Assembly: GCA_036378955.1 (NCBI GenBank)
Contig: DASUVM010000007.1
Coordinates: 36,442-100,441, forward strand
Direction: 5' to 3'
Origin: Candidatus Saccharimonadales bacterium
Lineage (GTDB): Bacteria > Patescibacteriota > Saccharimonadia > Saccharimonadales > Saccharimonadaceae
Length of the DNA: 64,000 nt
Positions 34,645-35,529 of the stretch are shown piece by piece (position 1 is the first letter of the stretch; each line of letters opens with the position of its first letter). The notes under the pieces were generated by a model, which made no database searches, was not told where the DNA came from, and saw only the letters and a program-made list of their open reading frames with translations. Both the position numbers and the translations under genes were made by a program.

Positions 34645-35139
34645 CTAACGAGGCAGCTCACGAATAAGAATACCGCCATCTAGAGCAACGTCTTTCAAAT
34701 AATGTAGCAATTTGCTAGTTATAAAATCAACTTCTTCGCCTATTTCGACAGCATTTTGTGCTGATATTTCATGCTTTAATAGTTCATCATATCCAACTGC
34801 ATTATCGAGTTTGTCGACAATAGTATATGTTGTGAGCGCACTACGTTCGCTTTGTCCCAATATAACTTGATAGTCAACGTGGGGAATATTATATTGTTCA
34901 TCAAACAATTGAAGAACTTGGTTATGATAACGAATGTTAATCAGCGCCTCTTCGATGCTGGCATATTGATGCTCAGAGCGCACTAACTTATCCGGTGAAC
35001 TTGCGAGATATGAAAACTTTTTTGAGTTTTCTCTTAACCCAACCCGTGCTGGTTGAAGAGCCTCCTGGAAAGGCGGATGTCCGCGCGATGCTTTCATTAT
35101 AATTATTATATCATCTTTATTATGTGTTGACAATATCAA
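34645..35139 (-). CDS. hypothetical protein
   Basis: 164-aa ORF. The 35139 start is TTG, and ATG 35097 (MKASRGHPPF) is an alternative. No recognised motif. Its 5' end overlaps the divergent whiB promoter. Confidence 0.4.
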   Translation of the reverse strand: MILSTHNKDDIIIIMKASRGHPPFQEALQPARVGLRENSKKFSYLASSPDKLVRSEHQYASIEEALINIRYHNQVLQLFDEQYNIPHVDYQVILGQSERSALTTYTIVDKLDNAVGYDELLKHEISAQNAVEIGEEVDFITSKLLHYLKDVALDGGILIRELPR

Positions 35140-35155
35140 AACGATCTGCTAGACT
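35127..35155 (+). promoter_or_regulatory. consensus sigma70-type promoter of the WhiB-like gene
   Basis: TTGACA (35127-35132), 17 nt, TAGACT (35150-35155). GGAGGA lies 7 nt upstream of ATG 35203. Confidence 0.6.
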
Positions 35156-35202
35156 CCCTGTTTGGTACACCCTGTAAGTCGACTCTCTTCCGGAGGAAGA
35201 AA

Positions 35203-35460
35203 ATGGATTGGCGATACAACGCCGCCTGCCGCGACGAAGACCCGGAGCTGTTCTTTCCTGTGGGAACGAGCGGTCCGGCCATTCTTCAAACCGCACAGGC
35301 CAAGGCCGTCTGCCACCGCTGCACCGTTGCCTCGGACTGCCTGAGCTGGGCACTACGGAGCGGCCAAGACAAGGGTGTCTGGGGCGGCATGAGCGAAGAC
35401 GAGCGCCGCGCGCTCAAGCGGCGGAATGCCTCACGGGTTCGCACCCGCAGCAACATTTGA
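35203..35460 (+). CDS. whiB: WhiB-like (Wbl) [4Fe-4S] transcription factor
   Basis: MDWRYNAACRDEDPELFFP...AKAVCHRCTVASDCLSWAL...GVWGGMSEDERRALKRR. It has four Cys spaced C-x27-C-x2-C-x5-C, the GVWGG turn and a basic tail. My hand count gives 167/258 = 65% G+C, against 38% on 34645-34744. Confidence 0.88.
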   Translation: MDWRYNAACRDEDPELFFPVGTSGPAILQTAQAKAVCHRCTVASDCLSWALRSGQDKGVWGGMSEDERRALKRRNASRVRTRSNI

Positions 35461-35487
35461 TTCACCCGAGCCCGCACCAGTACCGCA

Positions 35488-35529
35488 CGGATCCGGAAGC
35501 TCCGCCAAAGAGCTCCCGGATCCGTTTTT
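35488..35529 (+). terminator. strong intrinsic terminator of the WhiB-like gene
   Basis: CGGATCCGGAAGCTC, loop cgccaaa, GAGCTCCCGGATCCG (15-bp stem with one mismatch), followed by TTTTT. Confidence 0.8.

Follow-up and report, generated by a model that had tools for sequence, protein, structure and literature searches.

The WhiB-like (Wbl) family of proteins is stated to be exclusive to Actinobacteria and actinophages (PMC13013590, February 2026). In Mycobacterium tuberculosis, WhiB1 binds region 4 of sigma-A (sigma-A4), and the His516-Pro517 pair of the sigma C-terminal loop inserts in the cluster pocket; the sigma-A substitutions H516A, H516F and P517A each abolish WhiB1 binding, and the WhiB1 substitutions F17A and F18A likewise do so (PMC6954389). 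Binding of Wbls to sigma-A4 is mediated by an aromatic patch (AP1-4), His516 is needed for binding by all M. tuberculosis Wbls and by the three phage Wbls that were tested, and Wbl transfer between actinobacterial host and phage is documented (PMC13013590). Here we describe a WhiB1-type gene, wbl (35203-35460, plus strand), in a 64-kb stretch of DNA (the window) from a soil Candidatus Saccharimonadales bacterium, a member of the Patescibacteria, which appears to have been captured from a Pseudonocardiales actinobacterium. The restriction of the family, which a preliminary description of this DNA had mentioned and which is still stated in the literature (PMC13013590), is broken by this gene, its host genome being that of a Saccharimonadales bacterium; this makes the find novel and gives no ground for placing the protein outside the family. 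The literature searched contains no report of WhiB or Wbl in Saccharibacteria, Patescibacteria, TM7 or epibionts, except as a host gene.

The product of wbl is a protein of 85 amino acids (MDWRYNAACRDEDPELFFPVGTSGPAILQTAQAKAVCHRCTVASDCLSWALRSGQDKGVWGGMSEDERRALKRRNASRVRTRSNI; GenBank HEX6462393.1), with the layout MDWRYNAAC...GVWGG...RRALKRRNASRVRTRSNI and with Cys9, Cys37, Cys40 and Cys46 in the spacing C-x27-C-x2-C-x5-C. The open reading frame (ORF), the cysteine spacing, the GVWGG turn and the G+C count of 167/258 are all as the preliminary description gave them. The Pfam profile Whib (PF02467, cut-off 23.6 bits) matches along its whole length (model positions 1-65 of 65) with 91.9 bits and an E-value of 3.6e-26, which bears out the proposal that this is a genuine Wbl. 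The best matches in the Protein Data Bank are both WhiB1 (5OAY, E-value 3.4e-40, and 6ONO, 1.8e-39), ahead of WhiB (4.7e-15), WhiB3 (2e-13), WhiB4 (3.7e-09) and WhiB7 (1.6e-05). Identity to M. tuberculosis WhiB1 (Rv3219) is 72% over the full length, and the four cysteines line up with Cys9, Cys37, Cys40 and Cys46 of that protein. The aromatic patch AP1-4 (W3, F17, F18 and W60) is identical in the two proteins, V59 and the GVWGG turn (residues 58-62) are conserved, and a basic C-terminal tail is present at residues 68-82 (RRALKRRNASRVRTR), in which RRALKRRNA is retained. It is concluded from these comparisons that the protein is a WhiB1/WblE orthologue, since no other Wbl subfamily is as close to it as WhiB1. 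By all sequence criteria it is an ordinary member of the WhiB1 subfamily, and the novelty lies in the host phylum and the context. The automatic GenBank annotation of HEX6462393.1 is 'WhiB family transcriptional regulator', and the sequence is already public. A 90%-identity cluster holds both this protein and Actinophytocola WhiB1; the closest Actinophytocola sequence, HEX6351731.1, has the same HEX prefix, which may mean that both come from the same submission of metagenome-assembled genomes (MAGs); a common sample, if there was one, would hint at a pair of host and epibiont.

The composition of the gene sets it apart from its surroundings. Its G+C content is 64.7%, against a window mean of 47.1%, and its third-position G+C (GC3) is 74.4%, which is 4.0 standard deviations above the mean of the window's other 62 ORFs. 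Equally GC-rich segments of 258 nt make up 0.5% of all such segments, with the global maximum inside wbl. The neighbouring ORF (34645-35139) has 38.4% G+C, in agreement with the earlier figure of 38%. The GC-rich stretch also takes in the hairpin terminator at the 3' end of the cassette.

The top protein matches are WhiB1 proteins of Actinophytocola and other Pseudonocardiaceae, at 89-93% identity, the highest value being to Actinophytocola, and in the protein tree wbl is nested among Actinophytocola-like sequences (P0001-P0004). Donor-type whiB1 genes stand in the canonical context DAGK-whiB1-pdtaS-rshA-sigH. The window gene lies between rpsO and pnp and lacks this conserved neighbourhood, as would be expected if the gene was transferred singly. 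Nucleotide similarity to the donor-type locus is confined to the coding sequence (about 82%), and the 5' and 3' flanks are unrelated; divergence from the sampled donor-type genes is 13-21%. The gene therefore combines all the marks by which transfer was judged, namely a GC3 anomaly, nesting inside the donor clade, patchy presence and native flanks. The claim in the preliminary description that it is foreign to a non-actinobacterial genome is upheld by the high GC3 and by flanks unrelated to the donor.

That description had left the source as either host or phage. Actinophages commonly carry Wbl genes, there are matches to several PHROG Wbl families, and 30 viral contigs in IMG/VR encode relatives, so the source of the cassette could have been a phage, of actinobacteria or of Saccharibacteria, and not the chromosome of an actinobacterium. 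However, the best viral identity is 79%, compared to 93% for chromosomal WhiB1 genes in conserved synteny, and neither phage genes nor att-like repeats nor an integrase lie beside the cassette. The only integrase of the window, a tyrosine integrase at 326-1354, is 34 kb from it. A phage origin is therefore very improbable. Because of the difference between 93% in conserved synteny and a viral maximum of 79%, it is concluded that the donor was, as far as the comparison reaches, an actinobacterial chromosome of Pseudonocardiales type (Actinophytocola-like). Thus the host half of the earlier suggestion stands, in the form of a chromosomal Pseudonocardiales WhiB1, and the phage half does not.

Wbl genes were surveyed in the 10 kb on either side of pnp in the 80 genomes with the closest polynucleotide phosphorylase (PNPase). 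All 80 are Saccharibacteria/Saccharimonadales MAGs; a few of the record titles carry other phylum labels, which are probably binning errors. A MAG labelled 'Candidatus Saccharimonadales bacterium' encodes a protein with 100% identity to the RpoD of the window. The nearest genome (L002; OY969928.1) is a chromosome-level assembly of 1.26 Mb from a separate project, with a PNPase 91% identical to that of the window. It carries a wbl orthologue whose site and orientation match those in the window, between rpsO and pnp and antisense to both. The two genes are 90.6% identical in amino acid sequence and 86% in nucleotide sequence, and the L002 copy, which keeps the aromatic patch, has 67.5% G+C and a GC3 of 85% in a background of 47.5%. 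The window and L002 have in common a TTGACA -35 element, a motif in the 5' untranslated region (UTR; TGGTACACC), a GGAGG ribosome-binding site (RBS) and a homologous terminator, none of which is found in any actinobacterial whiB1. At 11 derived nucleotide sites the two are grouped against four actinobacterial genes, and each conflicting split has at most one site.

Among the 80 pnp loci, a Wbl gene is present in two, in addition to the window, and absent from the other 78; the WhiB1 type is carried only by the window and L002. Scans of metagenome DNA with a 24-mer specific to the Saccharibacterial wbl copies, and with the pattern of 5' UTR, RBS and start codon, found no further relative. Because the two genes share their site and their signals and are united by the 11 nucleotide sites, it is concluded that the gene was, on this evidence, acquired once and then inherited vertically, in at least two genomes of species-level distinctness.

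The same orthologue decides whether the gene could be an artefact, in which actinobacterial reads were spliced into a Saccharibacteria contig during assembly or binning. The source appears from its record type to be a short-read third-party annotation (TPA) MAG, and there is a sharp step in G+C at both edges of the cassette, as a chimera would give. However, the cassette is a 0.4-kb island in the middle of a contig of 124 kb (124,427 bp), with native genes on both sides; the independent 1.26-Mb assembly has the orthologue at the same site, 14% diverged in nucleotide sequence and with shared non-actinobacterial flanks; and the L006 locus discussed below has the same architecture with a different Wbl. 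Since L002 independently carries a diverged orthologue at the same site, a chimera is ruled out for practical purposes, and we regard it as scarcely credible.

The predicted promoter of the cassette is local sequence. The preliminary description had proposed a TTGACA-17-TAGACT promoter, a GGAGGA RBS and a terminator with a 15-bp stem and a T5 run, and all of these are present. The putative promoter (35127-35155, plus strand) is AT-rich and of sigma-70 type, with TTGACA at 35127-35132, a 17-nt spacer and TAGACT at 35150-35155, which forms part of an extended -10 element (TGcTAGACT, 35147-35155); it matches the consensus at 10 of 12 positions. Taken alone this match is weak evidence, because a scan over 3 kb gave 10 promoter-like sites, where 5.6 +/- 2.3 are expected. 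The -35 element is kept in register at the orthologous L002 locus, in the form TTGACA-17-TATTAT, and the upstream region of the window gene has no similarity to that of actinobacterial whiB1. The earlier observation that an AT-rich promoter abuts a GC-rich coding sequence therefore holds, as a local promoter joined to an imported coding sequence. The 5' UTR (35156-35202, plus strand) contains the TGGTACACC motif at 35163-35171 and the RBS GGAGGA at 35192-35197, 5 nt ahead of the ATG; the motif and GGAGG are both conserved in L002. A scan of the window with Rfam at gathering thresholds gave no match.

The intrinsic terminator (35487-35529, plus strand) has 16-nt arms (35487-35502 and 35510-35525) with one mismatch, a 7-nt loop and a T5 run (35525-35529). 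It is predicted to fold with an energy of -26.7 to -26.9 kcal/mol and a z-score of -5.7 to -6.4, and none of 200 shuffled sequences was as stable. The L002 terminator has a perfect 16-bp stem (-35.2 kcal/mol, z -8.9) and a T4 run, and in the alignment it differs from that of the window by two compensatory double changes and the repair of one mismatch. The hairpin has the properties looked for in a predicted Rho-independent terminator, including conservation in the orthologue.

Selection on the gene was estimated from the window and L002 copies. There are 23 synonymous and 9 non-synonymous differences, and the ratio of non-synonymous to synonymous divergence (dN/dS) is 0.08. Pairs of actinobacterial whiB1 genes give 0.06-0.12, and purifying selection on wbl, as estimated from these ratios, is as strong as among actinobacteria. 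Of the changes private to the window copy, 10/14 are from G or C to A or T, which indicates a composition slowly drifting from GC to AT, that is, amelioration in progress. Synonymous divergence (dS) between the two genomes is 1.4-1.7 for rpsO and pnp, which is saturated, and 0.67 for wbl. Because of the low dN/dS, the drift from GC to AT and the presence in both genomes, it is concluded that wbl is, by these measures, functional and older than a species-level split. The term 'recently acquired' in the preliminary description is therefore too strong: the gene predates the split of genomes with 91%-identical PNPase, and is 13-21% diverged from the sampled donor-type genes.

These results also bear on the suggestion that wbl is a neutral or decaying passenger, a by-product of the scavenging of host DNA with little or no expression and no function. 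The patchy distribution of the WhiB1 type and the two metagenome scans that gave no further relatives would fit such a passenger, and so would the absence of the docking motif from the resident sigma factor (see below). However, two genomes whose synonymous sites are saturated elsewhere both have an intact ORF, dN/dS is low, and the -35 element, the RBS and the terminator are conserved, the last with compensatory changes. In addition, reduced genomes, with a size of about 1.26 Mb, are expected to lose useless DNA. A passenger is thus improbable, if less so than a phage origin.

The site of insertion is a variable one. In 64 Saccharibacteria loci (among L002-L081) the spacer between rpsO and pnp ranges from 113 bp to 9.7 kb, and this variation in length marks it as an insertion hotspot whose cargo varies. 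The L002 promoter of wbl stands back-to-back with the promoter and leader of pnp. In the window, a divergent promoter (35105-35133, minus strand; TTGTCA-17-TATAAT, 11/12 matches, TG-extended) has its -35 region in common with the wbl promoter and points at two orphan ORFs (orf164 and orf139) and pnp. In L002 and L006 its TATAAT (CATTATAA on the plus strand) is conserved beside the wbl promoter and directly faces pnp. A pnp leader hairpin (AATAAGTAACGGGTA...TCCACCACTTATT; 34096-34150, minus strand) lies just upstream of pnp (31946-34063); the motif is also found upstream of pnp in L002 and L006, and shows which side of the insertion region is native. The wbl cassette is not bounded by direct or inverted repeats, and a mobile-element origin was rejected on this ground.

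A second Wbl is found at the same spot and in the same architecture in L006, whose PNPase is 78% identical to that of the window. This gene (L006 1219-1515, minus strand, divergent from pnp) encodes a WhiB3/WhiD orthologue, 87-90% identical to proteins of Goodfellowiella and Amycolatopsis, whose genes adjoin groEL, as does M. tuberculosis whiB3. It has an AT-rich TTGCCG-17-TATTAT promoter, a GAGGAG RBS and a GC-rich coding sequence followed by a hairpin, and its GC3 is 82% compared to 54% for pnp. The L006 gene is interpreted from this as a second, independent Wbl capture, and the repetition of such an event next to the pnp promoter suggests that the spacer is permissive and that promoters are captured there.

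The preliminary description had also proposed that the Wbl works with the resident transcription machinery. The candidate partner is the primary sigma-70 factor RpoD (52563-53606, minus strand), with Pfam regions 1.2, 2, 3 and 4. In an ungapped alignment with the 6ono and 7ckq sigma-A chains, its Lys335-His336 (52599-52604, minus strand) align with His516-Pro517 of M. tuberculosis sigma-A, and it reads VRKHKD where sigma-A reads RKLRHPSRS. Lys-His stands at the docking positions in 119 of the 120 closest sigma homologues (Saccharimonadales), including that of the L002 genome. The primary sigma factors of Saccharimonadales end in LRKHKD, where the near-universal form is LRHPSR, and among the sigma representatives of more distant lineages the majority keep RHPS. 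The motif [LIVM][RK]HP[STAN] does not occur in any frame of the window. Because Lys-His replaces His-Pro in the resident RpoD, canonical docking of the Wbl on this factor is not supported by the alignment, and the earlier proposal is not borne out. The Lys-His pair is a property of the partner and not of the Wbl. The options that remain for Wbl action are docking in a register displaced by one residue, action independent of sigma, or a target in the host.

There is a second Wbl-domain gene in the window, two genes downstream of the sigma factor, which the preliminary description had overlooked. It lies at 50999-51817 (minus strand), in a tight same-strand string dnaG-rpoD-kinase-wbl-polA, and encodes 272 amino acids, of which the N-terminal 195 or so have no family match and are followed by a C-terminal Wbl domain (Pfam Whib, E-value 4.8e-19, residues 200-264). 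The domain has the W, LFFP and GMWGG motifs, a basic tail, and cysteines in the spacing C-x22-C-x3-C-x5-C, in which C-x3-C is unusual. Its nearest solved structure is Streptomyces WhiB (8dy7_H, 1.4e-14); a single-sequence AlphaFold prediction of the whole protein has a mean predicted local distance difference test (pLDDT) score of 35. The gene has a native composition, with a GC3 of 44% over its whole length and of 37% in the Wbl part.

The 6 kb on either side of rpoD were surveyed in eight places, two of them without DNA or without the relevant stretch. The L002 genome (rpoD locus L117) holds an orthologue of the 272-residue protein that is 51% identical, compared to 91-96% for housekeeping proteins of the same two genomes, so this Wbl diverges fast. 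[quoted passage not shown] The 272-residue and 167-residue Wbls both keep the W, FF and [GI/M]WGG motifs, and viral scans with each of them found no relatives. In L122, whose sigma factor is 89% identical, the same slot holds another N-terminal domain running into a truncated Wbl start. No Wbl gene is present in the rpoD slot of Saccharibacteria with a sigma factor at most 81% identical, among the loci examined. In the distant Saccharibacteria L118 and L119 (7134-11304), the slot between rpoD and polA holds proteins of 485 and 654-707 amino acids that contain region-4 domains of sigma-70; it seems that variable genes related to transcription gather in this slot.

It is concluded that the clade had, to judge by their composition and divergence, ameliorated and fast-evolving rpoD-linked Wbl genes, to which the GC-rich WhiB1 is a later addition. 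The preliminary description had named, as evidence against its own reading, Wbl genes that are vertically inherited and compositionally normal in related genomes. This evidence is found in part, in the form of compositionally normal Wbls in three closely related genomes. Because the clade already holds Wbl genes of native composition beside rpoD, this repertoire favours a role for WhiB1 inside the epibiont.

The alternative is that WhiB1 acts on the host: the copy would reach the host cytoplasm, by some export route or on contact, bind region 4 of host sigma-A and perturb transcription as has been proposed for actinophage Wbls. The protein is 89-93% identical to Pseudonocardiales WhiB1, has all residues that contact sigma-A4 intact and shows an actinobacterium-like dN/dS; actinobacterial sigma-A has the His-Pro docking pair that the resident sigma factor lacks; L006 has an equally host-like copy of WhiB3 type; and phage Wbls of the WhiB1 subfamily bind sigma-A4 (PMC13013590). 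However, the N-terminus (MDWRYNAACRDEDPE) is not hydrophobic and contains no signal peptide apparent on inspection of the sequence (no dedicated signal prediction was run), and no secretion gene is linked to the cassette. The older Wbl fusions of native composition in the rpoD string point to intracellular use, and high identity is expected without mimicry since WhiB1 is highly conserved everywhere. In addition, we know of no demonstration that Saccharibacteria pass cytoplasmic proteins into their hosts (no literature search was aimed at it), and have counted this against a host target. An action on the host is therefore unlikely, and the wider proposal that the WhiB1 copy and the L006 WhiB3 copy both mimic essential host regulators by occupying host sigma-A region 4 is a shade less likely again. 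If true, it would make a cellular parasite a user of actinophage-type transcription hijacking, and would explain why the resident sigma factor need not carry the His-Pro pair.

We therefore favour capture followed by use within the Saccharibacterium. An ancestor of a soil Saccharimonadales clade would have captured a WhiB1/WblE gene from a Pseudonocardiales (Actinophytocola-like) actinobacterium, plausibly of the lineage that hosts the epibiont. Natural competence is a property of Saccharibacteria, whose cultured members live on Actinobacteria (PMC10633639, PMC10187176); the epibiont may have taken up host DNA through its competence, with illegitimate recombination and capture of a promoter as the next events. 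The gene would have been fixed beside the pnp promoter, and is predicted to be transcribed from its local sigma-70 promoter to the strong terminator. With its ligands conserved, the protein would bind a [4Fe-4S] cluster through Cys9, Cys37, Cys40 and Cys46, and may act as a transcription factor responsive to nitric oxide (NO) or to redox state. It may dock on region 4 of the resident sigma-70 through the intact aromatic patch (W3, F17, F18 and W60); because that factor has Lys-His and not His-Pro, any contact would have to use a shifted register or a modified interface. Alternatively, it could bind DNA through the basic C-terminal tail after loss of the cluster; apo-WhiB1 binds DNA in M. tuberculosis.

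Several points weigh against this account. The resident sigma factor has, in the alignment, Lys-His and lacks the His-Pro pair required for WhiB1 binding. No genes for Fe-S assembly were seen within the 64-kb window. The protein tree supports the monophyly of the window and L002 copies only weakly (bootstrap 42%), and monophyly is accepted because of the nucleotide sites and the flanks. Finally, the low dS of wbl could reflect constraints on composition, or a later spread of the gene. With these points taken into account, we consider the identity as WhiB1, the origin, the single acquisition and the selection to be, taken together and as read from the sequences, highly probable. The whole mechanism, of a host-derived WhiB1 that acts as an NO or redox regulator within the Saccharibacterium, is on balance probable. 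What is said of cluster binding, of the signal and of how the protein acts on RNA polymerase is jointly put forward more tentatively, as a serious possibility, and the idea that the protein lets the epibiont mirror the redox state of its host is speculation.

Other features of the window are described here for completeness. The two orphan ORFs between the shared divergent promoter and the pnp leader (34181-35139, minus strand; 139 and 164 amino acids) are AT-rich (GC3 30-36%) and not part of the wbl cassette. They have no match in Pfam, PHROGs or NCBIfam and are missing from L002 and from all 80 related loci, and it is concluded that they were, by this comparison, inserted into the window between the divergent promoter and the pnp leader. 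A terminator-like hairpin of the convergent rpsO (35629-35895, minus strand) lies at 35588-35617 (minus strand). In L024 (UBA1050) the rpsO-pnp spacer (7626-9781) contains an island of 59% G+C, which encodes a multi-pass membrane protein of 491 amino acids, permease-like by eye, and a protein of 184 amino acids that on inspection resembles a purine phosphoribosyltransferase.

The most GC-rich gene of the window is at 19495-20589 (minus strand), with 61.7% G+C and a GC3 of 80% (z 4.7). Its product is a secreted protein of 364 amino acids that has a linker rich in Thr and, at the C-terminus, a LADTG sortase anchor; it passes the cut-off of TIGR01167, and LAXTG-type models also match. The LAxTG motif is the actinobacterial (class E sortase) form, and this is probably another gene acquired from an actinobacterium. 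Two further GC-rich ORFs, 37999-38421 (plus strand, GC3 70%) and 30538-31761 (minus strand, GC3 60%), have no family matches; the former is absent from related loci, its C-terminal half is hydrophobic, and it may encode a membrane protein. A type IV pilus cluster at 2573-12818 (minus strand) contains PilB-like and PilT-like ATPases, PilC, a prepilin peptidase, pilins and PilM, consistent with the description of type IV pili as well conserved in Patescibacteria (PMC11623550).

The locus breaks a textbook boundary, in that a clade of Patescibacteria has no fewer than two to three genes with a Wbl domain, of which one is a near-pristine WhiB1 and one is embedded next to rpoD. It also offers a natural experiment on the Wbl:sigma interface, with Lys-His where every tested Wbl needs His-Pro; the docking rule may be more flexible than supposed, or Wbls may be able to work without sigma. 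In addition, host-captured Wbls are a pointer to the hosts of uncultured soil Saccharibacteria, here Pseudonocardiales (Actinophytocola-, Goodfellowiella- and Amycolatopsis-like), and could guide co-cultivation.

Of the described systems, the closest is WhiB1 of M. tuberculosis (Rv3219), with WblE of Streptomyces (5OAY, 6ONO), which the window protein resembles in its cysteine spacing, aromatic patch, V59, GVWGG turn and basic tail. It differs in that the gene is in a Saccharimonadales genome (Patescibacteria), has lost the whiB1 synteny, has a local AT-rich promoter, and is accompanied by a primary sigma factor with Lys-His and not His516-Pro517. The 272-residue protein is nearest to the Streptomyces WhiB/M. 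tuberculosis WhiB2 subfamily (8DY7), and the 167-residue protein of the L002 genome also matches WhiB best; unlike members of that subfamily, the Saccharibacterial genes are AT-rich and of native composition, with long N-terminal extensions that have no family match, C-x3-C in the window copy, fast divergence and a location in the rpoD string. Actinophage Wbls (the WhiB2 homologue of mycobacteriophage TM4, and Q857R7 of the WhiB1 subfamily) are also small single-gene units captured from actinobacteria by an obligate parasite of these, but here the carrier is a cellular epibiont with its own RNA polymerase and not a virus whose Wbl is made in the host cell, viral relatives are at most 79% identical, and there is no phage context. 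The arginine deiminase system of Saccharibacteria (PMC8764695) and nrdD in mammal-associated Saccharibacteria (PMC7427843) are likewise lineage-specific foreign gains in the reduced genomes of epibionts. They are metabolic modules of mixed origin, whereas wbl is a regulator, of a family otherwise assigned only to Actinobacteria, on which cultured Saccharibacteria live, and was taken up as a naked single gene.

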